DNA of 64,000 bases from Neocallimastix sp. 'constans' (Eukaryota): assembly GCA_050613775.1 (NCBI GenBank), contig JBODTK010000013.1, positions 1,116,001 to 1,180,000 of the forward strand, written 5' to 3'. Position 1 is the stretch's first letter. Every line of letters begins with the position of its first letter. The notes below the pieces were generated by a model, which had not been told where the DNA came from, did no database searches, and was given only the letters and a program-made list of their open reading frames with translations. Below are positions 3,175 through 64,000 of this stretch, in pieces. The translations under genes were made by a program, and so were the position numbers.

Positions 3175-3209
<35 letters not shown>

Positions 3210-31313: not shown

Positions 31314-31324
31314 ATAACAATTAC
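31314..31324 (+). promoter_or_regulatory. Self-priming PBS of B
   Basis: ATAACAATTAC directly after the 5' LTR is the exact complement of GTAATTGTTAT at 31151-31161, which lies ~30 nt after TATAAATA (31113). No TGG tRNA-type PBS. Confidence 0.85.
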
Positions 31325-36512: not shown

Positions 36513-37867
36513 AGTTAATCTCGCAGGAGCTCGACTTAAGGGGCGAGATTGTAAAGATATTATTAATATCTTTATAAATTTTAATTAAATTTAATCATAA
36601 ATTTAAGTAAAATTGAAATAAATCTATTAAAAATCACGTGTATAAAATTATTGCAAATAATTTTAAACAAAACTTCGACTTCTTCCCAATCATATTAATA
36701 AATTAAAAATTTCTCTTGTGAACCTAGTAATTGAAAATCATTTCTTTTTATGTAATTTAATTTAAATAATAAGAGTTAAGGTTTTTTACAAGATAAATTA
36801 ACAACATGAAACTATGCAATTAGTCATGTTGAAACTTGCGGTATTTTATGCTAAAATCATATTAAATAATTATGACAACTTTTATATTAATTTTAAATAG
36901 AAAATATAATAAGAATTTATTAATAATATTTAAATAATAAATAAATAATAAATGAGCTCGATTGAAATTGTTTATATTTATTTTAGTTATTAATTATAAT
37001 TCTCTTTATTTAGTAATAGTTAATTATTTATTATTAGTTTAGGTTAGTATTGTTTTTAAATAAATAGTTAGATAATATAATTCAATAGGAATTATATATT
37101 CTAAATGTAATAAGATAAAAATATAAATAGTTAACCAAATTTCATGTATTTTAATCGATGTAATTGTTATTAACGATTTATTGTTAATAACACTAATAAT
37201 TAATAAAGATTATTTTAAAATCTAAATATAATAAAACTTATTTGTTTATAGAACATTTTTGTGTTATTTAGTGTTATTATAATTTTTGACTTATAATCTA
37301 TTTTTTAAATCAAAACTTTATAATAAATACTTTTAAATTTAAATAAGATAAAATAAGTATTTATTGAACAAGTTTTGATAAACAAAAATGTTAACAAAAA
37401 TGTTGTTCTTTTAAATAAGAATTATTACATGTTTTTATAATTTTCGTTAAGATTAAACTATATAATTAACTATCTAATTTAATTACTATTTATATCTTTT
37501 AGAAATATTAAAAAAAGAAAAAGTATTACTATTTTAATTCTATTTAAAGTCTTATTTTCTATTTTAAAAAAAAAGAATTAGTTTTAAGTCTTTAAAATAA
37601 AATAACTATTTACTAATTATATCAAATAATAACAAATATTTATGTAATAAAATATATTTTACATAATAAAATTATTTAAATTTAATTTCTATATTAATTA
37701 TTTAAATTTACATTGTTCTTTTATTAATCTTAAAATTTTATTTGAAAATACTAACTTTTTATAATAATTATTTATAATTTTATAGTTTAGTAAATTATTA
37801 TTATAAATTATTAATTTTAGTTTATTAATTAATTTTAAATTATAAATTTCATCTTTTATCACAGTTA

Positions 37868-38880
37868 TGGTAGACTCGGGGTTGACACTTAGATATTTAA
37901 AATCAAGCAGGGGGGACGGGTATTACCCTGCTTTGATTTTAAAAAAAAAAAAATAATTCTTTATTAAAAGTTATTTATTTTTTTTATTAATATAAAATTT
38001 TATTATTTAAAGTACACATATTTAATTTTTAAGAAATTGTTACAATATTTATATTTTTTTATAAATTTAAAGTATAATTAATTGTTTATAATTTAAGTAA
38101 TTCTATAGAATTATTGAATTAATTTTATATCAATAATTCATTTTTGTTTTAATTTTTATAAATATAATAATATAATATTCAAATATAATTTAATTAAAAA
38201 TAATTATAAAATAAATATATAGAAAATAGTTTTTACTATTTTCTTTGATATTTTTAAGTTAAATAAATTGTTTTTAAAGATTAATATAATAAATTTAATA
38301 ATCTTTAATTATTTTAAATAATACTTGTAATTATTTTCAAAATAAAATAAAATTTTTATAATATTTAATTAATAAATTTGATAATATTTAAATAATAATT
38401 TTTATAATAAGTAAAAATTTTTAATAATAATTTTTAATAATAATTTTAATTAATAATCTTAATAATTTTATAATAATATTTAATAGTTATAATAAATAAA
38501 TTTTTATAATAATATTTAATAATTTTAATAATTTTATAATATTAATAATTTATAATAATTTTTAGAATAATATTTAATTAATAATTTTAATAATTTTATA
38601 ATAATTTTTATAATAATATTTAATTAATAGTTTTAATAATTTAGTATCTTAAAAGTATAATTTTAATATTTACAATTGTATTTTAATATACATATATTTA
38701 ATAATATAACAATAAAATAATTAATTAAAATTTATTTACATTATTTACAAGTTAAAATTAATTTATATCAAAATAAATTAAATTTTATTATTAAGTTTAG
38801 GTTATCAAGAATATAGGAAAGTACAATTTAGTAAAGAATTATTAATAATAAAATAAAGGTTATTAATTCATTCTTTACCA
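37868..38880. mobile_element. Solo LTR E' (1013 bp), queue member
   Basis: TGGTAG..TTACCA; near-identical to 55246-56320; left flank GTTA, right flank G. Confidence 0.85.
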
Positions 38881-38881
38881 G

Positions 38882-39553
38882 TGACAAATGTTGATTATTA
38901 TCTTAATTTAGAATTTACTTCTAAAAGTGATAATAATTTGTCAATTAAAAGGGTAGTTATTAACACAAAAATGTTAATTAAAACACTACAGTTTAAAATA
39001 AGAAAAGAATATTTGTTTTTTTTTTATAATAAAACTTTATTTATCAATATAAAATTGTACTTTTTATTATTTTGAATATTTATATTCTTAATAAAAAGTA
39101 TTTAAAATAAATGAGAATAAAAGAAAATAATTTATTAAAACTTAAATTTTAAATTTTTAATTCTTGAATTCTGATTTTTTTTATTTTTAAAGAAATATTT
39201 ACATGTTTTTATATTTTTCTTTTAAGTTTAAATTATTTAAAATAAAACTATATAATTATTTTAAGTAAACACTTTTAAGATAAAATAAACAATTTTGTTA
39301 TTATTAATAAGTTTCTTTTTAATTAATATTAATATCAATTTAAACTGAGATTTAATTTAAAATCGTTAAAGTAAAATAAAAGAATAATTTAATATAAAAT
39401 ACATTGTTCTTTAAATTAAAATAATATTTATTTAATAATTTTAAATCTTTTAATTTATTTTTATTAAAATATTATTTTATAATTATCTTTAATTAAGAGG
39501 GTTATTATTCCATTTTATTGATTTTTCTTAATTTATAATTTGGTTATTTATCA
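38882..39553. mobile_element. Solo LTR I (672 bp), queue member
   Basis: TGACAA..TTATCA flanked by CCAG (38878-81) and CCAG (39554-57). Confidence 0.75.
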
Positions 39554-40798
39554 CCAGTGATACGTTATTTTATTAATCTTTATTATTAATATTTTAGTAT
39601 CAATATTTTTGTGAGTTTGCAAGATAGTACAAAATTAAATAGTATATTCTAATATAGAAATATATAATTACTACACACTTTATTTTAAAACAGAATTTTA
39701 AGAATTATTTTTGTCGTTTTATTTTATTTTATTTAATTTATTATGTCGTAATACAATTTTATAATAAAGTATTATAAAAAAATCTTATTAACTATTTATT
39801 TCTAACTTATTACTACATTATATTTTATAAATAAATATATTCCCCGAATATATTTATCTTAACTAATGTATATCTATTTTCTCCAAAAAAAAAACCCCTT
39901 TAAAAAATTTATAATAATTTTTCTTTTTATACTTTTAATTTACTATAATTTAAATCCTATTGGCTGTTAATTAATTAAATAAATTTGAATAATTTTATAT
40001 TATTATTTATTATTGTGATATAATTAATTATTATATTTTATTACAATTTTATTGACAATTTTCATTTTTATTTAAATACTGTAGCAAAACGCCCCCACTT
40101 AGTATAGACTTCGTCCCTTGAAGTCCTCAAGTTTATATTATATATATAAATTTTTTTTTTTTTTTTTTTTTTTAGGTTAGTATACTAATATTATTATATA
40201 ATATTATTTTTTATTTATTCATTTCCTATATATATTTTTATTTATTTTTAATTTTGAAATTTCAAATTAGCAATTTGAGATTTTGAAATTGGAATAATTA
40301 TTTATTATTTACTAATCTATTTAAATATAATTATATTGTATATTTCTATCTATATATTAAAATATGTATACTGTAATGTTACATTTTTTTATTTTTATTA
40401 CTATTATTATTTATATTTTAACTCCATTGTAAATAAATCTAAAAAAAAATAAATTATAATTTATGATTAATATTGTAAATCTATTCTTCGGGTTCGTTAT
40501 TTGTAATTGTGTCCAGTATTCATTAAGTGTTTATCTTCCTTTTTTATTATTATAAATTATTATTGTATCTATCTATTATATTTATCTTTATGTATATTAT
40601 AATATTATTTTATACCTAATTATGTTAATTATAATTATATTTTTTTTAAACATTCATATTTCACTGATATATTTATTTATTATTATATTTATGTATTATT
40701 ATTTTATTATTATATTTATATAATATTATTGTATATTATTCTATTCATATATCTGTATTCTATATACTATTCTTATATTTTATTTTTATTTTTATTAT

Positions 40799-40840
<42 letters not shown>

Positions 40841-41014
40841 CTGTCTCTTATAACTATATTAATATTTTAGTTTATCATATATATGGATATATTATTAATA
40901 ATTGAACAATTTGAATTATTTTATTATTTTTTTTTTTTTTTTTTTATATATATATAATTATATTATATATATTATTATAATGTTTATTTATAACTATCGT
41001 TATAACTATCTGAT

Positions 41015-44000
41015 TTATTCTTCTTCTTCCAAATTTATTTCAGTGAAGTAAGGAATAACGTTTTTCAGATGAATATTACGATTGGCTATTTCTCCTGTAA
41101 TTGGATCGCATACTGTGACTGTATTCAATTCTTGTTTAACAATTTTTAACGGTCCAGTAAAAAAAGGATCCAACTTCCGTCTATTAAATACTTTTACTAA
41201 AACTAAATCTCCAGGTTTGTAGCAAGCCCGCAATCTTTTAATTTGTTTTCTACGATCTTCCCATAATTTGTTAGCTGTTTCTATATTGTTAATGGCTTCT
41301 TTGATCCATTTATCGTGAGTAATAAATTTTCTTAACCAATATTCTTCTTCACTTTCCATTTCATTTCTTCTTTCTATATTTAAAGTTAATTCAAAGGGTT
41401 GTAAGTCTCTTCTTCCATATAATAATTCAAAGCTACTATATTTTGTAACCTCATTCTTACAGGTTCTTAAAGCCCATAAAGCGCTGTATAGAGTTTCATC
41501 CAAAGTATCGGTAGATTTTCCAAGTAATCGTAGGTATTTACTTATCTCTTTATTTCGATTCTCTACTTCTCCATTTGATGCTGGATGGTAAGTTGTTATA
41601 TAATGTACATATATATCATGAAGGTCAAGAAAAGCTTTGGTTTTATCCGCGATGAATTGTGGACCATTATTTGTAATAAGTATTTCTGGTATTCCATGAC
41701 GAGAAAATACCGATTTTAAAAATTTTATAACATCTTCTGCTTCAACCGTTTTCAATGGTTCCGCTTCTACCCACTTTGTTAGATAATCTACTAATACGAT
41801 TATATATTTATTATTATTTCTTGTAGGTGGCAGTGGTCCAATGATATCTAACCCAACTCTAGAGAATGGATAACCAGGAGGTGTAGCGATACTTTCCACA
41901 TTTTTGTTAAGCGATTGAGGTCTGTATATTTGACAGCGATGACAGCTTTTAATAAAATTGTGCACATCATTCTTCATTGATTTCCAGTAATAATCACGTT
42001 TTAACCTATTGTATGTTCTATAAATACCTTCATGGCCAATTTGATGTGCATCTTTGATTAATTCAAACTGTTTTGTTTTATTCTTAATTATTTTCCTTAT
42101 ATTTTCTCCTTGCTTATAGTATTCAATACCATCAATATTTATAATTCTTTTATTTATAAATTCATTCATAAATTTATTTATACTGTCGTTATTATTATTG
42201 GAAGAAACGTTATTATTTACTAATGCATTTAATATTTCTTTATTTTCATTTATTTCTTTTGTAGGTAATCTGGATAAAGCATCGGCAATAACGTTCCTCT
42301 TCCCCTCTTGAAATTGAACTTTAACATTTAATATTGATAGTTCTGTAACCCATTTAAGGTGGCGATTATTTGACGGTTCTCTATTAGCAAATATACTAAC
42401 CAGGGGTTTATGGTCTGTATAAACAATAGTAGGAAAGGAGCTTCCACTAAAATAGGGTTTAAATTTTTTAACACAATGAAATATTGCTTTGCCTTCTAAA
42501 TCAGTAACACTATAGTTAGATTCTGAAGAAGAAAGAGTTCTACTCTCGAAATAAATAGGAACTTCTATAGAATTTTCTTTAACCTGCAATAATACTCCAC
42601 CCAAGCCATCTCTAGAAGCGTCAGTTCGAATAATAAAAGGTTTAGAATAATCAGGTGGAACAAGAATGGGAGCCATTGTTAATGTTTTCTTTAATTTTTC
42701 GAAAGCATAATTACAATCATTAGACCAAACATAACGAACATCTTTCTTTAATAAATTAAAAAGTGGTTTTGCAATTTGTGCGAAATTTTTCACAAACTTC
42801 CGGTAGTACCCAATAGCTCCAAGGAAGGATTTTAATTGAGTAATATTTTTCGGAGGGAGCCAATTCACAATAACTTTTACCTTATCTGGAATGGGTGAAA
42901 TACCTTGTGTCGATAAAGTGTGTCCGAGTAGCGTTTCCTTTGTTTTAAAAAATGAGCATTTCTCTAAATTTATCTTTAAACCATTATCAGCTAAAATTTG
43001 AAATACCATCGTGAGATGTTTAATGTGTGATTCAATAGAGTCTGAAAATATAACTAAATCATCAATGTAAACGAACAAACATACACCAATCAAATCAAAA
43101 AAAATCCGGTTCATTTCACGTTGAAAAGTAGCCGGTGCGTTACATAAACCGAACGGCATTACACAGAATTTGTAGTTTCCAAACATGGTAGTGAATGTTG
43201 TTTTATCTTTATCATCAGGATTCATTGGAACCTGATGATAACCAGAAAAAAGATCAATAGTAGAGAGTATTTTTGCGTTCTTTCCAATAAACATTAATAT
43301 GTCATCAATTAAGGGTAAAGCATATGAATCCTTAATAGTTATATTGTTTAAAGCTCTAAAGTCGACACACATTCTCCAGTCGCCGTTTTTCTTCGGAACT
43401 AGTACTACTGGAAATGCCCATGAAGAATAGGATGGTTCTATTAATTTGTTTTCTATTAGCTTAATCAAGATTTTCTTAAGAGCCTTTGTTTGTGCTTTAG
43501 ATAACCGGTAAGCTTTTAATTTTATCGGTGTAGACTGAGGAATTAAATCAATTTTATGAGGTAACAATTTTGATTTTCCTAAGTCATCTGTTTTGATTGC
43601 TATTACATTTTTAAATTTTGAAAATATTTTACTAATTTCATTTTTAAAATTATCAGGAACAGAAGATATTATTTCATTAATTAAATGTTCTTTCGTGTTA
43701 GGTAATTCATTAGTATTCGTAATTTCTTTATCATTGGTAACTGTAATTGTTAATAAGAAAGGTTCAGATTTGGTAGTTTGATGTTTTTCTATTTCTTCAT
43801 CATCCTTGTAAGTATTATTAAGATTAATGTCATAAAATAGATCTGCTAGTTTAATGTAATTATTATTTTCATCAATATAATATAAAGTATCATCTACTAA
43901 GTTAATATCAAATCTATTATTCTTTAGAGAATCAACACCAATCAAGATATCAAAAATATCATCTTTTTCGATTACCCTAAAATATTCATTAAAAGTTCTG

Positions 44001-45445
44001 CTACCAATAGAGACTTGTAAATCATAGATATCACTATCTATTGAGGAATTTGAGTACGCTTGAAATATTGTTTCAGAGATTCTACCAATAGAAGATTTGT
44101 TGATTTTTAATTTATTCAAAGCGGAACGTGTAATAACATTGACACTGGCGCAAGTATCTAAAAATATTTCACAATCATTATTCTCTACTTTTCCATTAAC
44201 TTTAATTATTTTATGTTTTGTAATAACTGTCATTACATTTGTTATTGTTTGTTTAGGTGTTAATTTTAAAGCTTTTAAGAATTCTGTTCGAAATTTTGGG
44301 AAGAGATCTAAAAGGTAGCCCAATTTTGTTATTACATCAGTTGATGCAATTTCTTTTATCAAATCTTGAATATAATAATCACCAAATTTCTCCATAAGTT
44401 TGATGTGTTTTTCAGGTTGTTTCATTGGAGTTTCACTTGTCTTGGTATTGGTATTCATTTCTTTCATTTTATTTTTTATATCTTTAATTCTCTCCTCTTT
44501 ATTTTTGTTTTTAACTTTTCTAATATTTTTTTCTGTGATAAAAGAAGGATCAAGATACTCTAGTTTTTGGGTATTACAATTTTTTTTATTAGGAGTTTCA
44601 TTCTTATTTGTATTATTTGCTCTAATGGAATTCTCTTCATTATCAGGTAAGGACTTATTATGATTTTTAATATTATTACTTTCATCAACATCAACATTGT
44701 TTTCATCATTTTCATATTCTTCTATCATGATTACATCTTCATTAGATTCTATACTTCCTGGTTCAACTGTTTGACTAGTGTTTATATTATTAGTAATATA
44801 ATCATCATTATTTATGTCAATATTTTCTTTAAAGGTATTATAAATATTATTTTCTTCATTATTATTGTCGTTATTATTGTCATTATTATTATCAATATTA
44901 TAATTAATTTTATTATTATTATTATTCATATTTTTATTTTCATGATCATTATTCCTATTATTATTATTATTATGATTATTAATATTGTTATAATTATTAT
45001 TAACATTTGTATTACTATAATTGGTATTATTTTTATTTTTAATATTATAATTATTAATACTATTATTATTCTTATTAATATTATTATGACTCATAGCTGC
45101 CGTTTGTATTGGTTTTGGATTGTCTTTTAAATTAAATCTCACTTCCTTTCTATTATATGGCTTTTCATTATATTTGCTAATATTATTTCTTGAATTTCGA
45201 GTAGCTGCTGCTACAATTTCAATTGGTCTATTTAATATATTTTGTGTAGTATTACTATTATTGTTTATATTAAGGTAATTACAATTTTGTTTTTCATTAA
45301 CACTATTATTAATTATAGGTAGTATTGTTTGATCATCTACCATTGTCATTATATTATTTTTATTGTTACATGAGTCATTATTTTTGAACATTATTTTTTT
45401 GGTTTGGTTAATGGAAGTTATCCTTCTCCCATTTATTGGTTTAAA
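41015..45445 (-). CDS. pol: Pol of C (PR-RT-RH-IN, no chromodomain), reached by -1 frameshift
   Basis: FLDTCAS, YIDD, RTDAS, GHEG, GLDII; the frame is open from TTTAAAC at 45445. The second IN catalytic Asp reads N (ITNNG). Confidence 0.93.
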   Translation of the reverse strand, partial: FKPINGRRITSINQTKKIMFKNNDSCNNKNNIMTMVDDQTILPIINNSVNEKQNCNYLNINNNSNTTQNILNRPIEIVAAATRNSRNNISKYNEKPYNRKEVRFNLKDNPKPIQTAAMSHNNINKNNNSINNYNIKNKNNTNYSNTNVNNNYNNINNHNNNNNRNNDHENKNMNNNNNKINYNIDNNNDNNNDNNNEENNIYNTFKENIDINNDDYITNNINTSQTVEPGSIESNEDVIMIEEYENDENNVDVDESNNIKNHNKSLPDNEENSIRANNTNKNETPNKKNCNTQKLEYLDPSFITEKNIRKVKNKNKEERIKDIKNKMKEMNTNTKTSETPMKQPEKHIKLMEKFGDYYIQDLIKEIASTDVITKLGYLLDLFPKFRTEFLKALKLTPKQTITNVMTVITKHKIIKVNGKVENNDCEIFLDTCASVNVITRSALNKLKINKSSIGRISETIFQAYSNSSIDSDIYDLQVSIGSRTFNEYFRVIEKDDIFDILIGVDSLKNNRFDINLVDDTLYYIDENNNYIKLADLFYDINLNNTYKDDEEIEKHQTTKSEPFLLTITVTNDKEITNTNELPNTKEHLINEIISSVPDNFKNEISKIFSKFKNVIAIKTDDLGKSKLLPHKIDLIPQSTPIKLKAYRLSKAQTKALKKILIKLIENKLIEPSYSSWAFPVVLVPKKNGDWRMCVDFRALNNITIKDSYALPLIDDILMFIGKNAKILSTIDLFSGYHQVPMNPDDKDKTTFTTMFGNYKFCVMPFGLCNAPATFQREMNRIFFDLIGVCLFVYIDDLVIFSDSIESHIKHLTMVFQILADNGLKINLEKCSFFKTKETLLGHTLSTQGISPIPDKVKVIVNWLPPKNITQLKSFLGAIGYYRKFVKNFAQIAKPLFNLLKKDVRYVWSNDCNYAFEKLKKTLTMAPILVPPDYSKPFIIRTDASRDGLGGVLLQVKENSIEVPIYFESRTLSSSESNYSVTDLEGKAIFHCVKKFKPYFSGSSFPTIVYTDHKPLVSIFANREPSNNRHLKWVTELSILNVKVQFQEGKRNVIADALSRLPTKEINENKEILNALVNNNVSSNNNNDSINKFMNEFINKRIINIDGIEYYKQGENIRKIIKNKTKQFELIKDAHQIGHEGIYRTYNRLKRDYYWKSMKNDVHNFIKSCHRCQIYRPQSLNKNVESIATPPGYPFSRVGLDIIGPLPPTRNNNKYIIVLVDYLTKWVEAEPLKTVEAEDVIKFLKSVFSRHGIPEILITNNGPQFIADKTKAFLDLHDIYVHYITTYHPASNGEVENRNKEISKYLRLLGKSTDTLDETLYSALWALRTCKNEVTKYSSFELLYGRRDLQPFELTLNIERRNEMESEEEYWLRKFITHDKWIKEAINNIETANKLWEDRRKQIKRLRACYKPGDLVLVKVFNRRKLDPFFTGPLKIVKQELNTVTVCDPITGEIANRNIHLKNVIPYFTEINLEEEE

Positions 45446-46758
45446 GGTTTATTAATCAAACCCTGTTCTTCCATTTCAGCCAATTGTTTAAATGTGTACG
45501 GACATTCTGAAGCTCTATGTCCCTCCATTGTACAACGATAACAATTCACATGATAATTGTTGTCATCATTAAATTTATTATTATTTTTGGTTACTAAGGT
45601 ATTAATGACATTGTTGTTTTCTGTTCTACTATGATATTTTTTCCTATTTTGGTAGCTAAAAGATTGAGTCATATTATTAGTGTTAATTGTGTTACCATTA
45701 GTCATTTGATTGTTATATTCTTTATTATTATTAGTCATCATATTATTATTTATATTTTTTAAATCAATATTATTTTGGTTATCTTCTCCTTCATTGAGTA
45801 ATTGATTATTACTCATTTTGTTCGTATTATTCATCATATTAAAATTCATATAATGATTGTTGATTTTGTTATTGTTCGAAAACCTATCATAATTGATTTT
45901 ATTATTATATCCATTTATTGAATTCCTTCTTGGCATTCTATTAACGTAATTATTACTGTTATTTGAATAATAATTCATATGATTTCTTAAATTTACCGCA
46001 TGATTCGAATAATTTGGATTCCTAGAGTTATTATTGTTCCATGAGCTAGCTCTAAAATTCCAATTGTTTTCTCCAATAAAGGTATTATTTCCATCTTGAT
46101 TCATTGGTAGTTGTCTTGAGTGAAGATTTTCGTAAAAAGAGTGATTCAATAATACATTATTATTAGTATGGTTTTGAGTAAACATGATGTTTGTTCCCAT
46201 ATTATTATTAATTTTGCTCCTTTGATTTGCATTGGATATTTCTTTTTCAGCTTCTTCAGCTACTTCAGCTATTTTAAATGCTTCATTTATTGTTTCACAT
46301 TCCGCTATCATAACTCTTGAACAGGGAAATACTCGAGAACTAATAGCATTTGTATAATCTTTGACCGAAATAAGTCTTCTATATTCCAAACTGAGTTTAT
46401 TATATAATTTTTTATATTTGTAATTAAACTTTTTTAACGACTCGTCTTCATTAATTTTTAAAGATTTAAGAACAGAACATTTATCATTCTCAGTTATATG
46501 TAAATGTTCTTCTATTGTATCTTGAATCTCCTTTAATGTAGGATATCTGATTGAGTCACCTCTTCCTTTTACTAATGAATTTAATGCGCCTTGAATATCT
46601 TCTTCCACGGCCTCTTTAGCCCATGTAAAAATGCGTCGAGGTTCCATTATATCATAAAGTTCCATCGTTTTGGAAAAATCTGTTATCCAACTTTCCACAT
46701 CTTTACCATAATTGATTAACAATGGTAAGATTCTTTGCAATTTAGCTGCATCAAACAT
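45433..46758 (-). CDS. gag: Gag of C
   Basis: 441 aa with an Asn-rich spacer and CYRCTMEGHRASEC knuckle. Confidence 0.9.
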   Translation of the reverse strand: MFDAAKLQRILPLLINYGKDVESWITDFSKTMELYDIMEPRRIFTWAKEAVEEDIQGALNSLVKGRGDSIRYPTLKEIQDTIEEHLHITENDKCSVLKSLKINEDESLKKFNYKYKKLYNKLSLEYRRLISVKDYTNAISSRVFPCSRVMIAECETINEAFKIAEVAEEAEKEISNANQRSKINNNMGTNIMFTQNHTNNNVLLNHSFYENLHSRQLPMNQDGNNTFIGENNWNFRASSWNNNNSRNPNYSNHAVNLRNHMNYYSNNSNNYVNRMPRRNSINGYNNKINYDRFSNNNKINNHYMNFNMMNNTNKMSNNQLLNEGEDNQNNIDLKNINNNMMTNNNKEYNNQMTNGNTINTNNMTQSFSYQNRKKYHSRTENNNVINTLVTKNNNKFNDDNNYHVNCYRCTMEGHRASECPYTFKQLAEMEEQGLINKPLNQ

Positions 46759-46892
46759 TTTAAGATTTTTGTAATTTTTAATGGTAATGATTATATAAAA
46801 AAAATTATAAAATTATGGTTTATTATTAAATAATTTATTTGTAATTATTATTTCCTTATTATTTTCATACTTCTTTATTAAATCTTGCTTTC

Positions 46893-46910
46893 CCCCCACG
46901 TTGGGCGCCA
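46893..46910 (-). promoter_or_regulatory. PBS of C, tRNA-Lys(CUU) type
   Basis: Minus strand reads TGGCGCCCAACGTGGGG, the well-known Lys1,2 PBS. Confidence 0.9.
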
Positions 46911-48135
46911 AAATTTTGATACGTTATTTTATTAATCTTTATTATTAATATTTTAGTATCAATATTTTTGTGAGTTTGCAAGATAGTACAAAATTAAATA
47001 GTATATTCTAATATAGAAATATATAATTACTACACACTTTATTTTAAAATAGAATTTTAAGAATTATTTTTGTCGTTTTATTTTATTTTATTTAATTTAT
47101 TATGTCGTAATACAATTTTATAATAAAGTATTATAAAAAAATCTTATTAACTATTTATTTCTAACTTATTACTATATTATATTTTATAAATAAATATATT
47201 CCCCGAATATATTTATCTTAACTAATGTATATCTATTTTCTCCAAAAAAAAAACCCCTTTAAAAAATTTATAATAATTTTTCTTTTTATACTTTTAATTT
47301 ACTATAATTTAAATCCTATTGGCTGTTAATTAATTAAATAAATTTGAATAATTTTATATTATTATTTATTATTGTGATATAATTAATTATTATATTTTAT
47401 GTTGAAATTATAACTGAATTGAAATCTCAATTTCAGTTATTTACATTTCAATAGTTAACAAATATTATTTATTTAATTATAAATAATATATATATTTAAA
47501 TAATTAATAATTAATATAAATTCTTATTTAATATTTAAGGAATTATCTTAGGCCTAATAATTCTGAGAATATTAGTAAATAAGATTTATATTAATAATTT
47601 CAATTATCTACATATGACGTCACATGTATTTATTTATATTATGTTTATATATATGTTTACATCATATATATTAACTACTATTTTTAATTATTCAAATTAA
47701 TTATATAATTATAAATTAAATTTATTTAGTTATATTAAATATTTTAAACATATCGATATTGTTATTATCTTAATATTTTATTAATATTCATATTACTATA
47801 TTATTAATATCTTATAATTAAATATTATTATTATGTAACTTACAAAGTATAAAAGAAAGATGTAAAAATCTATCTTTTATGTTCTTTGTAAGGTTATTGT
47901 ACTTACAATAATTATATACTAATAATTCAATAAATAAATATTTTCATAAATCCTTCAAAGAAATTATTATTTAAAATATTCTTAGATATTAAGTGTTTAA
48001 ATAACTTAACTATTTATCTTATATTATTTTTATATTATTATTAATTAATTATTGTTGGATTATTAATATATAATTCAACATATTAACCTAGTAACGTTAT
48101 TAATCATAAAACTATTTTATATCTTAATTTTAACA

Positions 48136-48145
48136 ATAACCTTAC
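48136..48145 (+). promoter_or_regulatory. Self-priming PBS of D
   Basis: ATAACCTTAC is complementary to GTAAGGTTAT at 47888-47897 (13 bp including the LTR end), downstream of TATAAAA at 47848. Confidence 0.85.
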
Positions 48146-48169
48146 CCTAGTTTTGGTTACTACTTTAAT

Positions 48170-53071: not shown

Positions 53072-54455
53072 CTAAAATGATAATAATAATAATATTATTA
53101 TAAAAAAAAAAAAAAAAAATTTGGAAATTTTATTTTTATTAATTTGTTTTTAAATTTTATTTTATTATTATCAATTTTTCAGTCAAATTTCAATTTCAAA
53201 ATTTCGAAATTTTCAAAATTTTCAAAATTCAAAAACATAGCTATGTTACACTTACATCTATCAATTTATAATCTAATTTTATTCATAAATTCATTAATTA
53301 TTATAATTTTCAATTTTTAAAGTTAATGCATAAAATTAAAAAGTTAATTGAAATTAAAATTTCAAAATTTCAATTTCAAAAATTTTTAATCAAAAACATT
53401 TAAAAATGGTACCATCATATTCTTAAACATCAATTTTCATAATAAAATTTTAATTTTATTAAATTTTAGAGATTTCAAAATTTCAATGAAATGGCCACTT
53501 ATAAAGGGTTTCCTTTAAAAATTTAAAAGGACTCAAGTGACCTTCCTCTTTCATAAATTAAAAATTTTTAATTTAAGAAATTCCAAAAAATTTTTTAACA
53601 AAAATTTAATCCTCCTTATCGTTACACAAAAATCGTCTTGAATCCGATTTTTATGGGAGGGCATTGTTGAAATTATAACTGAATTGAAATCTCAATTTCA
53701 GTTATTTACATTTCAATAGTTAACAAATATTATTTATTTAATTATAAATAATATATATATTTAAATAATTAATAATTAATATAAATTCTTATTTAATATT
53801 TAAGGAATTATCTTAGGCCTAATAATTCTGAGAATATTAGTAAATAAGATTTATATTAATAATTTCAATTATCTACATATGACGTCACATGTATTTATTT
53901 ATATTATGTTTATATATATGTTTACATCATATATATTAACTACTATTTTTAATTATTCAAATTAATTATATAATTATAAATTAAATTTATTTAGTTATAT
54001 TAAATATTTTAAACATATCGATATTGTTATTATCTTAATATTTTATTAATATTCATATTACTATATTATTAATATCTTATAATTAAATATTATTATTATG
54101 TAACTTACAAAGTATAAAAGAAAGATGTAAAAATCTATCTTTTATGTTCTTTGTAAGGTTATTGTACTTACAATAATTATATACTAATAATTCAATAAAT
54201 AAATATTTTCATAAATCCTTCAAAGAAATTATTATTTAAAATATTCTTAGATATTAAGTGTTTAAATAACTTAACTATTTATCTTATATTATTTTTATAT
54301 TATTATTAATTAATTATTGTTGGATTATTAATATATAATTCAACATATTAACCTAGTAACGTTATTAATCATAAAACTATTTTATATCTTAATTTTAACA
54401 TTTTATTACAATTTTATTGACAATTTTCATTTTTATTTAAATACTGTAGCACCAG

Positions 54456-55241
54456 TGGTATGGTTCATATAATTTTAGGAATATAATAATAATTAACACA
54501 AATAATAAAATTACAATAAAAAAAATAATTTGTTTTAAAATCAATATTTATTTATTTAAATTTATAAAAGAAAAATAATAATATAATTATTTATTTAATA
54601 AAAGTAAGTTATTCATTATATTTTATTTCACTAAAATTACATGTATTTATATTTTTTTATCAAATTAAAATTTGTAAAGCCTAACTATTTTTTTAATAAA
54701 CTAATTACTAATTATTTTTATAAATAAAACATTTAAATTGAAATTGAATTATTATTTTAGTTAATAATATTATTGTTATAAATAGTAGTTATATATTATT
54801 GAATTATTAATTATTTAATAATAGTTTAATACTAATATATATAAAATAAAAATAAAGAGATTATACAGAATATTTTATTGTGGTTTAGTTAAATTTAGTA
54901 ATTAAAAATAAATTTAAATTGATAACGAAAATTTTAATAACTAATTAAATAGATTTGATTATTTTCAATATAACATAATACAAAAGAAATATAATATTAA
55001 TATATTAAGTGGGCAAGGACAATATTCTTGGCTAAAGATTTTTAATACATTATAATGGAATCGGATCGATAATTCAAAAAGGAATTATAAGTTAATTAGT
55101 GATTTATTAACTTAAGATTTCTATTTAGTAATATTTGAAGAATATTGGAAAGTTCCAATTATATAGAATAGAATAATCTATAAGGTTAGAATAATTTATA
55201 TTATTCTAGCACAATTAGTATTATTTGTTCATTCTGTATTA
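54456..55241. mobile_element. Solo LTR H (~786 bp), queue member
   Basis: Starts TGGTATGG after CCAG and ends ..GTATTA before CCAG (or ..TTACCA before G; ambiguous). Confidence 0.7.
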
Positions 55242-55245
55242 CCAG

Positions 55246-56320
55246 TGGTAGACTCGGGGTTGACACTTAGATATTTAAAATCAAGCAGGGGGGACGGGTA
55301 TTACCCTGCTTTGATTTTAAAAAAAAAAAAATAATTCTTTATTAAAAATTATTTATTTTTTTTTATTAATATAAAAGTTTTTTATTTAAAGTACACACAT
55401 TTAATTTTTAAGAAATTGTTACAATATTTATATTTTTTTATAAATTTAAAGTATAATTAATTGTTTATAATTTAAGTAATTTTATAGAATTATTGAATTA
55501 ATTTTATATCAATAATTCATTTTTGTTTTAATTTTTATAAATATAATAATATAATATTCAAATATAATTTAATTAAAAATAATTATAAAATAAATATATA
55601 GAAAATAGTTTTTACTATTTTCTTTGATATTTTTAAGTTAAATAAATTGTTTTTAAAGATTAATATAATAAATTTAATAATCTTTAATTATTTTAAATAA
55701 TACTTGTAATTATTTTCAAAATAAAATAAAATTTTTATAATATTTAATTAATAAATTTGATAATATTTAAATAATAATTTTTATAATAAGTAAAAATTTT
55801 TAATAATAATTTTTAATAATAAATTTAATTAATAATCTTAATAATTTTATAATAATATTTAATAGTTATAATAAATAAATTTTTATAATAATATTTAATA
55901 ATTTTAATAATTTTATAATATTAATAATTTATAATAATTTTTAGAATAATATTTAATTAATAATTTTAATAATTTTATAATATTAATAATTTATAATAAT
56001 TTTTAGAATAATATTTAATTAATAATTTTAATAATTTTATAATAATTTTTATAATAATATTTAATTAATAGTTTTAATAATTTAGTATCTTAAAAGTATA
56101 ATTTTAATATTTACAATTGTATTTTAATATACATATATTTAATAATATAACAATAAAATAATTAATTAAAATTTATTTACATTATTTACAAGTGTAAATT
56201 AATTTATATCAAAATAAATTAAATTTACAATGAGGTTTAGGTTATGAAGAATATAGGAAAGTACAATTTAGTAAAGAATTATTAATAATAAAATAAAGGT
56301 TATTAATTCATTCTTTACCA
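55246..56320. mobile_element. Solo LTR E (1075 bp), queue member
   Basis: TGGTAG..TTACCA with CCAG on both sides; same family as E', with an extra ~62-bp internal repeat. Confidence 0.88.
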
Positions 56321-57262
56321 CCAGTGGTACAGAACTGAAGAATTTTTATCATAAAATAATATATTCTAATAATTAAAGAAAATTTTAAATTCTATTCTAT
56401 TATTCTAATCTATTATTCTAATTTAAAAATCTAAATACTAAACAATTTAAACTAAAATAAATTATTCAAAATTAATATAACCTAATATAAATAATTTAAC
56501 TAACAACTATAATTATTAAAACTATTAACCAAACACTAAAAACCTTTAAACACTTAATACAAAACTTAAATTATTTTTAATTCTAACTTTATTTAAAATA
56601 AACTATTTTATTTTTATTATTTAATCTATTCTAACTTTATTATTTAAACTATACTAATTTATTATTTAAACTATTTAAATTTAATTATTTAAACTAATTT
56701 TATTTTAATTTAACTATCTAAATTTATCATTTAAACTCGAAAATATCAAAAGAATAATATAATAATAAAGTTGTAAGAAAAAGAGAGAGAACTAAAGTAT
56801 TGTACTACTTTGTTCTTTTTATACATTTAGAATAGTTATTTGATTGGATTAGAATAAAAATTTAATAATAAAAATTTAATAATAAAAATTTAATAATAAA
56901 AATTTAATAATAAAATATAATAATAAAATATAATAAACTATTAAAATATTATTAAGTATTACAATATTAAATAAAGATAATAATTAATACATTTTCTAAT
57001 TTATTATAACTAGATTTATAATTATTTTAATATTTTAATATTAATTATTTAATTCCACTAATATTAATAATTTTTAATCTTTAATAATTATATATAATTT
57101 TAATTATTTTATTTGTTCCGTAACATAATGCCACCCCTAAGCTCAGACTTCGTCCCCTGAAGTCTCGATTTCGCATAATTGATATGGAACAATATTTTTT
57201 AAGTGAACATTTCTATCGGCAATTTCGTTTGTTACTGGATCACAAAGTGTTACTGTGTTGAA

Positions 57263-60200
57263 TTATTTCTTAACGATTTTCATAGGGCCTAAAAAGAAAG
57301 GATCAAGTTTTCTTCTATTTATACACTTAATCATTACTAAATCTCCGGATTTATATTCAGCTTTAAGTCTTTTCATCTGTTTTCTTCTGTCTTCCCATAT
57401 TTTATTGGCAGTTTGAATATTATTGATTGCTTCCTTTATCCATTTATAATGGGTTGTAAATCTTCTTATTAAAAATTCTTCATTACTTTCGAAATCTTCT
57501 TTTTTGTCTAAGTTCAATACTAATTCGAATGGCTGGAGATCACGTCTACCATATAATAATTCGAAACTAGAAAATTTCGTTGTTTCATTTTTACTTGTAC
57601 GCAACGCCCATAAAGCACTTGGTAATATTTCATCCCACTGAGAAGTATTTTTATTACAAAGAAGTCTTAAATATTTCCCAATTTCTTTGTTGCGGTTTTC
57701 GACTTCTCCATTTGATTCTGGATGATAGGTTGCTATAAAATGAACATAAACACAATATAAGTCGAGGAATGCTTTTGTTTTATCGGAATTAAACTGGGGT
57801 CCATTGTCTGTTACAATTATTTCAGGAATACCGTGACGAGAAAAAACTTTGGATAAAAATCTTATAACATCATCAGATTCTATGTATTTAGTTGGCTCTG
57901 CTTCTACCCATTTTGTTAAGTAATCTACTAAAACAATTATATATTTATTTCCATTTTTTGTTGTGGGTAATGGGCCTATAATATCTAGACCAACTCTTGT
58001 GAATGGTAAACCTGGTTTTGTTGCTATATCTTCAGTTTGATAATTAAATGACTGAGGTCTAAAAAGCTGACATCTTTTGCAAGTTCTAACTATGTATTTC
58101 ACATCCAATATCATATTGGTCCAATAATAATCTCTTTTAAGTCGATTATAAGTTTTAAATACTCCTTCGTGACCAATTTTGTGAGCACTAAGTATAAGTT
58201 TAATTCTTTCTTTTTCATTATAAATAACTTTTCTTAATTTTCCATCATCCTTAAAAAATTTTTCACCATTAATGATTACAAATTTATCTTTAAAGCTTGA
58301 TAAAAGATTATTTTCGTTCATTTCAGAAGTTATTGTTGCAACTAATTCATCATTTTTCGTTTTTAACCTTGATAATGCATCAGCGATAACATTTTTCTTT
58401 CCTGGTTCGTATAAAACTTTAACATTAAGCATTGATAAAAGTAAGACCCATCTTGTTTGTCTTGAATTGTTTGTTTCTTTATTTTTAAATAATCCTACTA
58501 AAGGTTTGTGGTCCGTGTAAAGAAGCGTCGTATATTTGTTTCCAGAAATATATGATTTAAATTTTTTAAGGCAGTAAGTCGCGGCTGTTCCTTCCAGATC
58601 CGTAATTGCATAATTTCTTTCCGCCGGTTTTAAAGAGCGACTTACGAAGTGAATTGGTTTTTCATTGTTATTTTCATCCTTTTGAAGTAATACGCCACCT
58701 ATTCCGTCATAGGAAGCATCAGTTCTAATAATAAATTGTTTTTCGAAATCAGGCATAGTAAGTATTGGAGTTGAAACTAGTTTATTTTTTAATTCATTGA
58801 AACTTTCTTCTTGTTCATTTTCCCAAATAAATTTAACTCCCTTTTTTAAAAGTTTGAATAATGGTTTTGCAATATTCGCAAAGTTGAATATAAATTTACG
58901 ATAGTATCCAACTGCACCGAGAAATGATTGTAATTGTGTGATATTTTTGGGAGGTATCCATTCTAAAATAACTTTTATTTTATCTTGAATTGGAGAAATA
59001 CCATTAATCGACAATGTATGTCCTAATAGTTCTACTTTTTCTTTAAAGAAATTACATTTTTCTAAGTTAATCTTTAATCCATTTTCTTTTATAATTTCAA
59101 ATACTTTTTTAAGATCTTCAACATGTTGTTCTAAGGAAGGAGAGAATATTACTAAGTCATCAATATAAACAAACATACATACACCAATAAGAGGGAAAAA
59201 TATTCTGTTCATTTCTCTTTGGAAGGTACCTGGAGCATTACACAATCCAAAAGGCATAACTAAAAATTGATAATTACCGTACATTGTCGTGAAACTTGTT
59301 TTTGGAATATCTTCTTTATTCATGGGTATTTGGTGGAATCCAGAAAATAGGTCAATTGTTGTGAATATTTTTACTTGTTTACCAATAGAAAATAAAATTT
59401 CATCGATAAGAGGTAGCGCATAAGCGTCCTTGATTGTAACGTTATTCAATTTTCGGAAGTCAATACATAATCTCCATTTTTTATTTTTCTTGAGAACTAG
59501 GATAACCGGAGAAGACCAAGGAGAGTTCGAGGGTTCGATTAATTTGTTTTTAATAAGTTTTTCTAACTCCTTTTTAAGTGCTATAGCCTGAACTTTTGAA
59601 AGTCTATAACATTTTTGTTTTATTGGTTTAGTATTCATTTCAAGTTGAATGTTATGTGGAAGTAACTTGGTTGGTTTTAACTCATCAATTTTAGTAGCAA
59701 GAATAGAATGGAATTCATTAAAGATTTCTTTTATTTTATTTTTAAACTTATTCGGTACTCCATTAATTATTACTTCTATCATTTTATCCTTTTCGTTAAT
59801 TTCTTCCTTAAATTGTTTTTTTATTTTTTTATTTCCAGTTTCAAGATTTGAATTTTTTGTATTTATTTGTTCTTTTAGTATCGTATTATTTTTCTTACTA
59901 TTATCTTCCTTTATAAAGCAATATAAATAGGAATTATTATTAATATCAGAGTTTGTTTCATCATATATTATTATAGATTCAGCATCATCATCATTATTAT
60001 TAATAATATTTCCATTATTGCCTTTACCAAGTTTTATAATATATTCCCAAGAATCATCTTCTTTCATTAAACATAGATTATTGTTAAGAGGATTGATGAA
60101 TAAATTGTTTTCTTTAAGTGTTCTGTAGCCAATTAATATATCAAACAAATTTTGATCATTATCAATGACTCTGAAAATATCATGTATAACTAATTTTCCA

Positions 60201-61048
60201 ATTTTAATATTTAGTAAATAAATTTCAGTGTAAACGTTTTCTTTTGATAATACTTGTACAATGTTGTTCTTAACAAATCCTATAGGTTTAATTTTATTCA
60301 ATTTATTTAGGAAGTTTTTTGTGATAATGTTGATACTGGCACATGTATCTAAAAATGCTAAACCTTTAATATCATTAATAAAACATTCAACAGTTGCTAC
60401 ATCTTCTCTATGCATGGCAGACAGTACGATTTCTTCAGGTGATTCATTAAGAGTTTCAGGACTTTTGAGTTTTAATGCCTTAATAAAATCTGCACGAAGT
60501 TTTGGACTAACATCTAATAATTGTGGAACTGTAATATTAGCAAATTTTGAGCTTATATCCTTACAAATGTCATACTTTGGTTGTCCTTCCATAATTGTGA
60601 TTTGCTTATTAAAATTAGAGTTTTTAACTTTCTTTTCAGCTAACTCGATACTTGGAAGTTTAGCTTTTTCTTTGTGTTTATTCGTTTCTTTATTATTAAT
60701 GTTTAAAATTTCATTTTCTCTTTGTTTTCTTGCGTTCTTTTTTGCTTTATTAATTGATGGTTGACTTATTACAGAAACATCAATTTGGTTAAGTTTTTCT
60801 GTTTCCTTTGGATATATTTTGTCGATTGAAACTGCATCATCTTCGATTTTGATATTCTCATTGTTAGTTTTTGTATTAGAATCAATTTGATTATTTTGAT
60901 TAATTGTATTATTTTCTTTATTTTTCCTTTTGTTTTTTCCATATGGTTTTTCAATTAATAAATTTGTTTTTTTTCTAATAGCAGTAGCTACAATTTCTTC
61001 TTTGGTTTGATTAGTGGGAGTTTCCCTTCTCCCTTTTAGAAGTTTAAA
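57263..61048 (-). CDS. pol: Pol of F, reached by -1 frameshift; premature stop near the C-terminus
   Basis: Open from TTTAAAC (61048); FLDTCAS, YIDD, TDNG. After the TAA the homologous FNTVTLCDP..HLKNIVPY continues. Confidence 0.92.
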   Translation of the reverse strand, partial: FKLLKGRRETPTNQTKEEIVATAIRKKTNLLIEKPYGKNKRKNKENNTINQNNQIDSNTKTNNENIKIEDDAVSIDKIYPKETEKLNQIDVSVISQPSINKAKKNARKQRENEILNINNKETNKHKEKAKLPSIELAEKKVKNSNFNKQITIMEGQPKYDICKDISSKFANITVPQLLDVSPKLRADFIKALKLKSPETLNESPEEIVLSAMHREDVATVECFINDIKGLAFLDTCASINIITKNFLNKLNKIKPIGFVKNNIVQVLSKENVYTEIYLLNIKIGKLVIHDIFRVIDNDQNLFDILIGYRTLKENNLFINPLNNNLCLMKEDDSWEYIIKLGKGNNGNIINNNDDDAESIIIYDETNSDINNNSYLYCFIKEDNSKKNNTILKEQINTKNSNLETGNKKIKKQFKEEINEKDKMIEVIINGVPNKFKNKIKEIFNEFHSILATKIDELKPTKLLPHNIQLEMNTKPIKQKCYRLSKVQAIALKKELEKLIKNKLIEPSNSPWSSPVILVLKKNKKWRLCIDFRKLNNVTIKDAYALPLIDEILFSIGKQVKIFTTIDLFSGFHQIPMNKEDIPKTSFTTMYGNYQFLVMPFGLCNAPGTFQREMNRIFFPLIGVCMFVYIDDLVIFSPSLEQHVEDLKKVFEIIKENGLKINLEKCNFFKEKVELLGHTLSINGISPIQDKIKVILEWIPPKNITQLQSFLGAVGYYRKFIFNFANIAKPLFKLLKKGVKFIWENEQEESFNELKNKLVSTPILTMPDFEKQFIIRTDASYDGIGGVLLQKDENNNEKPIHFVSRSLKPAERNYAITDLEGTAATYCLKKFKSYISGNKYTTLLYTDHKPLVGLFKNKETNNSRQTRWVLLLSMLNVKVLYEPGKKNVIADALSRLKTKNDELVATITSEMNENNLLSSFKDKFVIINGEKFFKDDGKLRKVIYNEKERIKLILSAHKIGHEGVFKTYNRLKRDYYWTNMILDVKYIVRTCKRCQLFRPQSFNYQTEDIATKPGLPFTRVGLDIIGPLPTTKNGNKYIIVLVDYLTKWVEAEPTKYIESDDVIRFLSKVFSRHGIPEIIVTDNGPQFNSDKTKAFLDLYCVYVHFIATYHPESNGEVENRNKEIGKYLRLLCNKNTSQWDEILPSALWALRTSKNETTKFSSFELLYGRRDLQPFELVLNLDKKEDFESNEEFLIRRFTTHYKWIKEAINNIQTANKIWEDRRKQMKRLKAEYKSGDLVMIKCINRRKLDPFFLGPMKIVKK

Positions 61049-62091
61049 TGATCGTTAGAAGAGCCTTGATTTTGATTTTCGAATTCAGCAAGTTGTTTGA
61101 AAGAATATGGACAAGGTTTATAGTAATGTCCTTGTTGTCCACAACGATAGTATGTAATCGGTGATTTTTTGGTAATAATTTTCTTTCTATTCTGGTTAGT
61201 TTCATTATTCGTAAATTCATTATTAAGTCTTGTATCATCGAAATTTTGCTTAATATTCACTAGATTATTTTTTTGCTCGTATTCTTCTTGATTATAAGTT
61301 CTTTTATTATTGGCAATCTTTGGATTACTAAAACCATGCTGGAATTCATTAAATTCATTATAATTTTGATAATTTGGTTGATTCCTTTTATTGTATGAGT
61401 TGTATAATTGCTTTCTACTATAATTTTGATTGTGATTTTGGTTATAACTTTGATTATAATTCTTATTATAAATCGAAGAATTAAATTGTTTGAAAGGATG
61501 AACATTATTTCTGTAATAAAATGGTTGGGAATTAAAAACTGTTGTCATTACTGCTTCATTAGCGGCATCTCCAATTTCTTCGGCTCTTTCTGCCAATTCA
61601 GCTTCTTCGAATGCATCTTCTAAGTCGAAACATCGTTGGGTTATGACTTGAGATCTAGCATAAGGTCGATAGATTATTGAATCTGCGTAGTCTTCAACAG
61701 TAATAAATGTTTGGTAAATTTTCGGTAGATTATTATAAATTTTCTTGTATCTCCAATTAAAGTTCTTTATACTTTCTCCTCTTCTAATTTTCATTCTTTG
61801 TAACCTTTTACATTTCTCTTGGGGTGTTATCTCAAGTTCATTTTCTATTGCTTTTTTGATTTCTTCAATAGAAGGGTAGATATCATTTTCTTCTTCGTTC
61901 TTAGTGTGTAATTCTTGTAAAGTCCCTTTTAACTTTCCATCGACACATTCGATAGCCCATGTGAGTATATTTTTTGGATTATTTATATCTGCTAGAGACA
62001 TAATTCTTGTAAATTCTTCGCACCAAGAATCTATATCTCTTGCGTTTTCGTTGAGTCTTGGTAGAATTCTTTGTAGTTCTAATATTTTCAT
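61036..62091 (-). CDS. gag: Gag of F
   Basis: 351 aa homologous to the gag of C; knuckle YYRCGQQGHYYKPC lacks its first Cys. Confidence 0.9.
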   Translation of the reverse strand: MKILELQRILPRLNENARDIDSWCEEFTRIMSLADINNPKNILTWAIECVDGKLKGTLQELHTKNEEENDIYPSIEEIKKAIENELEITPQEKCKRLQRMKIRRGESIKNFNWRYKKIYNNLPKIYQTFITVEDYADSIIYRPYARSQVITQRCFDLEDAFEEAELAERAEEIGDAANEAVMTTVFNSQPFYYRNNVHPFKQFNSSIYNKNYNQSYNQNHNQNYSRKQLYNSYNKRNQPNYQNYNEFNEFQHGFSNPKIANNKRTYNQEEYEQKNNLVNIKQNFDDTRLNNEFTNNETNQNRKKIITKKSPITYYRCGQQGHYYKPCPYSFKQLAEFENQNQGSSNDHLNF

Positions 62092-63100
62092 TTTGGAATT
62101 TTATTTGAAATTATTAATTGATGTATGAATGGATGGGTTTTCTTTTTGATTATAAATTTTATTATCACTTCCTAATTTATTTCTTAATTTGATGGATGGA
62201 TTAATGAAATTTTATTTTATTTCTAATTTTATTATCGCTTGTTATATTATTTCTTAATTGATGGATTGATGAATGAAATTTTAATTTAATTATTAATTTT
62301 ATTGTCACTTTTTTATTTAAGATGATGGATGGATGTGTTGAGTATAATTTTTCAATTCTCTATTTGAATTAAATATTGAACTAATTGAATTTAAAAATAA
62401 CTGTTATTGGATTGAAATATTGTTTATTGAAATTTTCCATTGAATTTTATTAATGACAACTTTATTTTATATTCATATAATAATTCTAAAAAAAAAAACC
62501 TTATAACTTCGGTGAAATAAGTTCATTATTCGCCAGTGCTCGATCTTGTCCGGAAACCCTGCCAACACTCGAATAGTTAACAAACTACGGAGATGTGTCG
62601 TGGGGAGTATAAATTTATATTACTCCGGGACGGAAAACCGCACTCACAAAATCGACTAAAAACCTTAATTAATAATAAATTGGAATCACCCTAATTCGTT
62701 ATTAATTAATTTCCTTACGGTTTACACACTGTATATGAATTATTATATTTTTTGGTTTTGTTATCTTCTTTGAGTTAAAATAATAAATTAATATTAAATT
62801 ACTATTAATTATTATAATTATTATTTTTTTTTTTCTAACTCTAATTTTATTAAAATTTTTATATTATTTACTTATATTTTATTTTATTTATTTTATTTTA
62901 TTTTATTTTATTTTATTTTTTTTCTAATTAAAATTTTATACTATTTCCTAATTAACTAATTAATTATTTATTTTTTATTTATTATTATTTTTATTCTATC
63001 AATTAAAATTTTTTTTTTTTTTTTTTTTTTCTATTTCTAAACTTTATTAATTAATAAAATTTTTCTAAAATTATTATTTTCATATTATTTTATTTCTTCA

Positions 63101-63119
63101 GGTCCTGCATAGCTCGCCA
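63101..63119 (-). promoter_or_regulatory. PBS of F, probably tRNA-Arg(ACG) type
   Basis: Minus strand TGGCGAGCTATGCAGG resembles the Arg PBS TGGCGAGCCAGCCAGG. Confidence 0.6.
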
Positions 63120-63961
63120 AATCTTTATGGTACAGAACTGAAGAATTTTTATCATAAAATAATATATTCTAATAATTAAAGAAAATTTTAAATTCTATTC
63201 TATTATTCTAATCTATTATTCTAATTTAAAAATCTAAATACTAAACAATTTAAACTAAAATAAATTATTCAAAATTAATATAACCTAATATAAATAATTT
63301 AACTAACAACTATAATTATTAAAACTATTAACCAAACACTAAAAACCTTTAAACACTTAATACAAAACTTAAATTATTTTTAATTCTAACTTTATTTAAA
63401 ATAAACTATTTTATTTTTATTATTTAATCTATTCTAACTTTATTATTTAAACTATACTAATTTATTATTTAAACTATTTAAATTTAATTATTTAAACTAA
63501 TTTTATTTTAATTTAACTATCTAAATTCATCATTTAAACTCGAAAATATCAAAAGAATAATATAATAATAAAGTTGTAAGAAAAAGAGAGAGAACTAAAG
63601 TATTGTACTACTTTGTTCTTTTTATACATTTAGAATAGTTATTTGATTGGATTAGAATAAAAATTTAATAATAAAAATTTAATAATAAAAATTTAATAAT
63701 AAAAATTTAATAATAAAAATTTAATAATAAAAATTTAATAATAAAATATAATAATAAAATATAATAAACTATTAAAATATTATTAAGTATTACAATATTA
63801 AATAAAGATAATAATTAATACATTTTCTAATTTATTATAACTAGATTTATAATTATTTTAATATTTTAATATTAATTATTTAATTCCACTAATATTAATA
63901 ATTTTTAATCTTTAATAATTATATATAATTTTAATTATTTTATTTGTTCCGTAACACCAGT

Positions 63962-64000
63962 TGATACGTTATTTTTATAAGTATCAATGTTTTTGTGGTT
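63962..64000 (-). mobile_element. Start of LTR G (C-like), next queue member, running off the window
   Basis: TGATACGTTATTTT..AGTATCAAT.TTTTTGTG matches the left end of the C LTR; preceded by CCAGT. Confidence 0.75.

Follow-up and report, generated by a model that had tools for sequence, protein, structure and literature searches.

Introduction

The closest described systems are retrotransposons with long terminal repeats (LTRs), of the Ty3/gypsy type, that insert beside genes that RNA polymerase III (Pol III) transcribes. Ty3 is inserted 1-4 nt and Tj1 1-10 bp from the Pol III start site, and DGLT-A of Dictyostelium discoideum is inserted 13-33 bp upstream of transfer RNA (tRNA) genes in either orientation (PMC5911963, PMC5006619, PMC7175516). 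Ty3 generates a 5-bp target duplication (PMC6673722) and binds Brf1 through a vestigial chromodomain that follows the C-terminal domain of its integrase (bioRxiv 10.1101/2021.07.27.453949), and DGLT-A binds Tfc4 (PMC6101501). Here we examine a 64,000-nt stretch of the genome of the gut fungus Neocallimastix sp. 'constans' (assembly GCA_050613775.1, contig JBODTK010000013.1, positions 1,116,001 to 1,180,000 of the forward strand; hereafter the window). The window holds a stack of eight abutting LTR elements, most of which belong to one clade of Ty3/gypsy elements and which were probably inserted one after another, each measured from the same anchor on their right.

The stack shares with the Ty3 group (Ty3, Ty3p, Tj1, Tyl3/Tyl6/Ylt1, and Tca8) the Ty3/gypsy gene order and an insertion window of a few nucleotides, similar to the 1-4 nt of Ty3; Ty3 is also what the pol protein matches best in the PDB (E 9e-108). 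In contrast to Ty3, the duplication is of 4 bp rather than 5 bp, the clade integrase leaves no room for a C-terminal vestigial chromodomain, all six stack members that could be assigned (6 of 6) point the same way, the LTR families are many and their copies number in the hundreds, and the anchor is putative. When compared by description, DGLT-A resembles the clade as a GPY/F Ty3/gypsy element with no chromodomain, only a few bases between LTR and primer site, and many solo LTRs; however, DGLT-A has one open reading frame, about 20 copies, and either orientation, whereas the clade has separate gag and pol frames, hundreds of copies, and stacks of up to eight. The fungal chromoviruses nested within the window are likewise Ty3/gypsy elements that accumulate in repeat-rich DNA, but their duplications are of 5 bp, their positions inside other elements are unrelated, and they fall on a separate reverse transcriptase (RT) branch. 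The clade is Ty3/DGLT-A-like in its precision and is neither chromovirus nor Ty3 proper.

Results

Spacers of the stack are reproduced by a model of insertion at a fixed position

Eight LTR elements, designated from left to right J, E', I, C, H, E, F, and G, abut in the window with gaps of only 1 to 6 bases, in DNA of 10-30% GC. The seven spacers, read on the forward strand, are CAGTTA between J and E' (37862-37867); a single G between E' and I (38881); CCAG between I and C (39554-39557), C and H (54452-54455), H and E (55242-55245), and E and F (56321-56324); and CCAGT between F and G (63957-63961). All seven are exactly where an earlier reading of the letters, made with no database searches (the sequence-only reading), had placed them. 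The letters CCAG open five of the seven spacers, with a per-site chance of ~1.1e-4 in this noncoding DNA. The LTR types that flank them are unlike each other in sequence, as that reading had also claimed, with the exception of the E/E' pair (13 substitutions).

A forward model was run that started from the end of J followed by CAGTTA and inserted E', I, C, H, E, F, and G in this order, each with a 4-bp duplication. When the registers, counted from a fixed point to the right, were set at 4, 7, 7, 7, 7, 7, and 6 nt, 7 of 7 spacers were reproduced exactly, the duplications being presumably GTTA for E' (register 4) and CAGT for the spacer CCAGT (register 6). At this locus the insertion window is 4 nt wide when measured from the fixed point (registers 4-7), compared with a spread of 6 nt when measured from LTR ends, with each insertion falling -3 to +2 nt from the end of the previous LTR. 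A left-hand anchor was rejected, as it needs two extra mismatches compared with 0 for a right-hand one. In the model, CAGTTA between J and E' is what remains of the target site's right half, CCAG first forms where the CCA end of E' meets the one G at 38881 and is then copied, and CAGTTA is predicted to follow the final element. The model supports the proposals that every insertion struck the same site within a few nucleotides with a 4-bp duplication and that CCAG propagated itself. The CCAG letters do not form part of an LTR terminus, as the same LTR ends meet a polypurine tract or other spacers elsewhere. Serial, polarised, and nucleotide-precise insertion is well supported by these data, and we regard it as highly probable.

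Related LTRs abut at other loci across different spacers

Contigs of four independent sequencing runs were aligned to positions 54390-55320 of the window; one set (X17) covered part of H only, at low depth, and added nothing. None of the window's own junctions was bridged among the contig pieces listed. In the X1 contigs (165 million letters in total), an H end was joined to an H start via AAAA at a depth of 135, corresponding to about 3 copies. One contig each of X1 and X2 led from a related LTR end into an E-like start, with A, T, and A at spacer positions 2-4 (probably CATA); the X1 depth across this spacer was 381 (about 8 copies), with two contigs listed as bridging and E-like ends also aligning there. 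A mixed consensus of two contigs placed an E-like end before an H start, and loose contig ends displayed polypurine tracts after the H and C ends and primer sites before the E and H starts. The number of abutments expected from random insertion is <=0.02, under an assumed genome of 0.19 Gb with 3000 LTRs. A 2-LTR circle was rejected as the origin of the H-AAAA-H joint, as its letters mismatch the polypurine side and its depth corresponds to about three genomic copies. Joins of an LTR followed by a primer site, seen in the decayed element L of the window (described below) and at loci L004, L009, L014, and L083, were treated as collapsed assemblies and not as tandem arrays. At locus L001 (5914-6251), a unit of about 270-280 bp that begins TGTAAAAGG directly after the 3' LTR is repeated and may be a stack or a satellite.

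The presence of other 4-nt spacers (AAAA and probably CATA) between related LTRs at other loci indicates that stacking is a habit of the clade and that CCAG is a local duplication rather than a recognition sequence. Since the spacers vary, a fixed target sequence is excluded; targeting is by position, not by sequence. By contig depth, H is abundant: difference-free H contigs of X1 summed to a depth of 14,628 compared with 31-49 for single junction contigs, which gives about 325 copies, and X2 gives about 350-380, for a rough estimate of about 330 genome copies of the H LTR.

Six members share one clade and one orientation

An integrase search matched 117 proteins, 113 of which formed a block at 49-99% identity or were partial matches of the same group; below this block identity falls to about 30%, with six more rows at 28-38%. 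A chromodomain was listed in none of the close homologues of the 113-protein block, and C and F themselves had no Pfam chromodomain match. In a quick tree of the RT-RNase H region with 58 rows (that of locus L017 being long and unreliable), C, F, and L plus 21 relatives were split from 33 other rows with a Shimodaira-Hasegawa-like approximate likelihood ratio (SH-aLRT) of 100, and both nested elements were among the others. The clade is represented in 17 of 80 metagenome loci and in two contigs among 12 from genome bins. The 3' LTR of locus L011 is of the E type (97% identity to E and 95% to E') and that of L015 of the H type (98.6%), while G matches the C-like LTR end of L002 (92% over 37 nt). 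By these sequence comparisons, six of the eight members (C, F, E, E', H, and G) belong to a single clade of Ty3/gypsy elements that lack a chromodomain and come from anaerobic gut fungi. All six have their 5' end to the right, so that the common orientation previously claimed for C, F, and G extends to E, E', and H. The clade is not chromoviral: it has no chromodomain, a separate RT branch in the quick tree, and a 4-bp duplication. A TATAAA(A/T)ACATG motif common to I, J, and H was considered as a clade marker for I and J and was rejected, as it is also present in two solo LTRs outside the stack.

The C-terminus of the integrase was examined for a targeting module. All 14 aligned clade integrases stop just past the GPY/F motif and SH3-like domain, and a fold search with a predicted integrase model of moderate quality (predicted local distance difference test [pLDDT] 66, predicted template modelling score [pTM] 0.37) returned integrases exclusively. 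As the protein stops after the SH3-like domain, it has no counterpart of the vestigial chromodomain that Ty3 uses to bind Brf1; without a Ty3-type module, the clade integrase would need another tether.

Primer sites of the clade lie 1-9 nt from the LTR, varying by subgroup. The primer tRNA is putatively tRNA-Lys for C and tRNA-Ala for E and H. Orpinomyces gene models were among the close homologues of the window retroelement proteins, and window DNA was matched in sequencing runs from faeces and sheep gut, both of which point to an anaerobic gut fungus as host. The LTR-end patterns had no match in viral contigs or metagenome contigs, integrase searches of viral contigs yielded no clade member, and the primer-site pattern matched 3 viral loci. 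Neither the three metagenome-assembled genomes in which clade contigs occur nor a set of 106 related genomes yielded more than weak AT-rich matches, and matches in the Atlas were to generic gypsy integrases and gags. Fungal-type retrotransposon contigs (L081-L084) were present inside three prokaryotic genome bins, likely as contamination. Two clade elements, L006 (390-520) and L008 (600-730), also have GC-rich and possibly structured stretches within their 5' untranslated regions.

Anatomy of the members and of the nested elements

C and F are Ty3/gypsy LTR retrotransposons. In both, gag and then protease-RT-RNase H-integrase lie between LTRs, with a primer site and a polypurine tract; gag and pol are in separate, overlapping frames, and the junctions between polypurine tract and LTR are intact. 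C (39558-54451, minus strand) is full length and comprises a 3' LTR (39558-40086), pol (41018-45448), gag (45436-46812), and a 5' LTR in two pieces (46917-47399 plus 54406-54451) that are parted by a nested element. Its LTR pair has 2/529 mismatches, its primer site is 6 nt from the LTR, and its integrase core has N in place of the second catalytic D. F (56325-63956, minus strand) is also full length, with a 3' LTR (56325-57125), a pol frame that reaches 61054 and is broken by a single stop close to the end of the integrase, gag (61039-62091), and a 5' LTR (63128-63956); its LTRs differ by 1 mismatch in about 797. A conserved DNA motif, GACTTC...GGGACGAAGTC, precedes the polypurine tract in the C/F subgroup (window 57140-57165 and 40105-40130; L001-L005 and L017); it includes a 7-bp hairpin and reads TSRDEV as protein.

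The remaining members are solo or truncated LTRs. E' (37868-38880) and E (55246-56320) are family E solo LTRs on the minus strand, as is H (54456-55241), whose ends are TA...CA; an independent H copy in L015 begins TAATAC after the polypurine tract, which indicates that the TA end is native. I (38882-39553) is a solo LTR tentatively assigned to the minus strand, and G (63962-64000, minus strand) is a C-type LTR of which the window includes just the first 39 bases before it ends. J (30319-37861, strand tentatively minus), the leftmost member, is a TG...CA solo LTR split by a nested chromodomain Ty3/gypsy element at 30541-37322 (plus strand; LTRs with 1 mismatch in 774; 5-bp duplication ATAAA). 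A second nested element of chromovirus type occupies the 5' LTR of C at 47400-54400 (plus strand; identical 736-bp LTRs; 5-bp duplication TTTTA). Both had been set aside from the queue as chromoviruses, which agrees with their type and 5-bp duplications; a chromodomain was matched by Pfam only in the element nested in J.

Left end of the stack and other features of the window

The flanks of J do not match (TTAG on the left, CAGT on the right), which points to at least one rearrangement. To the left lies K (29376-30317), a solo LTR with 8-bp inverted ends whose 5-bp duplication, GTGTA, overlaps the first four bases of J. K is a later insertion outside the 4-bp series; its 5-bp duplication rules it out as a ninth member. 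With K removed, J adjoins the integrase of L (22155-29371, plus strand; 5' LTR at 22155-23382), a decayed clade member in opposite orientation that, compared with L013, is cut mid-codon where J begins and is missing its 3' end. The mismatched flanks indicate that a deletion or recombination took the 3' end of L together with the original upstream flank. The idea of an original CAGTTA site stands for its right half, which survives as a spacer, whereas the left flank is the integrase of this decayed, oppositely oriented element. Two more solo LTRs are nested in L, at 28676-29332 (5-bp duplication TAATT) and at about 22469-22955. A GC-rich hairpin within K (29565-29635; z -2.7) has TAACTG/CAGTTA arms; CAGTTA is also the sequence of the stack site, probably by chance.

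Further left, a ~200-nt GC-rich island in AT-rich DNA (20835-21030) folds on the minus strand to two long hairpins (z -3.3) and matched no Rfam family even with E values of up to 1 allowed; it is a candidate noncoding RNA. The protein encoded at 17681-19093 (minus strand) has repeats of 36 bp and carries a CBM1 cellulose-binding domain at its C-terminus, and a tandem pair of related repeat-rich genes, about 75% alike and with no Pfam match, lies at 2767-5210 and 6637-9812.

Discussion

We favor Ty3/DGLT-A-like insertion at a fixed distance from a right-hand anchor, most likely the start site of a Pol III gene, and assign this explanation a probability of roughly 0.65. Each insertion would begin with cuts staggered by 4 bp at 4-7 nt from the anchor, the bases between the cuts would be duplicated, and older members would be pushed away. 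The anchor would lie to the right of the window, most likely where transcription of a tRNA gene or another Pol III gene starts. E', landing closest to the anchor, would have put its own CCA end in place of the upstream bases, and later cuts at the favored register would then have copied CCAG. Most members were likely shrunk to solo LTRs by recombination, and the chromoviruses with 5-bp duplications would have nested in members independently. The order of insertion, the tethering, and the identity of the anchor are each points that we infer.

Several observations weigh against this explanation. Searches for tRNA genes and Rfam families had 0 matches in the window and matched in 0 of 19 relative loci, which cover internal regions, 3' flanks, or LTR joins collapsed in assembly and no true 5' flank. 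The 5' flank of L, an old and inverted element, has no tRNA gene, and L016 is followed on its 3' side by a fragment of a copia-like RT. The clade integrase ends about 5-15 residues beyond the SH3-like domain, the sums of contig depth are rough copy estimates, and I and J have no significant match to any retrieved LTR. The claim of a chronological array with the newest member at the right holds insofar as a right-hand anchor accounts for the spacers with fewer mismatches, but strict order is not borne out: LTR divergence of C versus F does not differ significantly (p=0.57), nor do the 8 mismatches of E' versus the 5 of E to L011 (p=0.58), and the sequence alone leaves the order of the five CCAG members free.

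An explanation that we consider unlikely, though the best placed of the alternatives, is that the integrase or an LTR-bound host protein targets the U3 end of resident clade LTRs, with no host-gene anchor. The close fall of each insertion by the previous LTR end, the LTR-to-LTR nature of all junctions visible at other loci, and the absence of a Pol III gene from the window, the 19 relative loci, and the 5' end of L are consistent with this rule. However, the LTR families that would have to be recognised are dissimilar in sequence, the U3 ends beside the polypurine tract are uninterrupted in C, F, and the relative contigs (partly collapsed assemblies), and the spread is 6 nt from LTR ends compared with 4 nt from a fixed point. 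To our knowledge, LTR-end targeting has no precedent, which we count against it.

Somewhat less likely still is a fixed host anchor other than a Pol III gene, such as a DNA-bound factor or a repeated motif. The register model requires just a fixed right-hand point, and the clade integrase does not carry the Brf1-binding module of Ty3, both of which would suit such an anchor. Against it, the Ty3/gypsy elements listed in a review with position specificity at the nucleotide level are associated with tRNA genes (PMC5911963), and DGLT-A, which has no chromodomain, reaches the same site through Tfc4 (PMC6101501). An assembly artefact or recombination among abundant LTRs, with CCAG as part of the LTR ends, is very improbable: H and E are very high-copy, the J flanks record at least one rearrangement, and the window junctions are not bridged among the listed contigs, but neither process can put identical 4-base spacers into five dissimilar pairs of LTRs, these LTR ends are followed in other places by a polypurine tract, primer site, or other spacers, and the drifted spacers CAGTTA, G, and CCAGT fit one duplication model exactly.

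Arrays of clustered regularly interspaced short palindromic repeats (CRISPR) and of integrons also grow in a polarised manner beside a fixed point with a duplicated spacer, and the sequence-only reading had attributed a similar logic to the stack. In the stack each unit carries its own integrase, and a queue arises automatically from any precise, anchor-measured integration; the likeness is geometric only, and the comparison has no functional support.

The same reading had suggested that a multi-family stack of this depth was undescribed in gut fungi. In agreement, no description of the clade or of such stacks in gut fungi was found in the literature listings and abstracts covered (mostly of open papers), and Neocallimastigomycota go unmentioned in the accessible part of a survey of fungal LTR elements (PMC3248453). 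A broader picture, which we offer tentatively and hold to be possible but rather doubtful, is a radiation of >100 non-chromoviral Ty3/gypsy families in gut fungi with one nucleotide-precise, orientation-fixed landing rule and a tether unlike that of Ty3 (possibly the LTR ends of relatives), building dozens of history-recording multi-family queues.

If the anchor is a Pol III gene, the clade would add one more lineage, apparently undescribed so far, to those that target tRNA genes precisely, operating in a large repeat-rich genome rather than a compact one and with an integrase devoid of the Ty3 targeting module. Should LTR ends themselves prove to be the target, this would be a new targeting rule. 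For fungi that are short of good genetic tools, the stacks would also hint at a native integrase with site specificity. Furthermore, deep multi-family stacks would provide an ordered record of element activity and would account for some of the repeat structure at which assemblies of gut-fungus genomes break.

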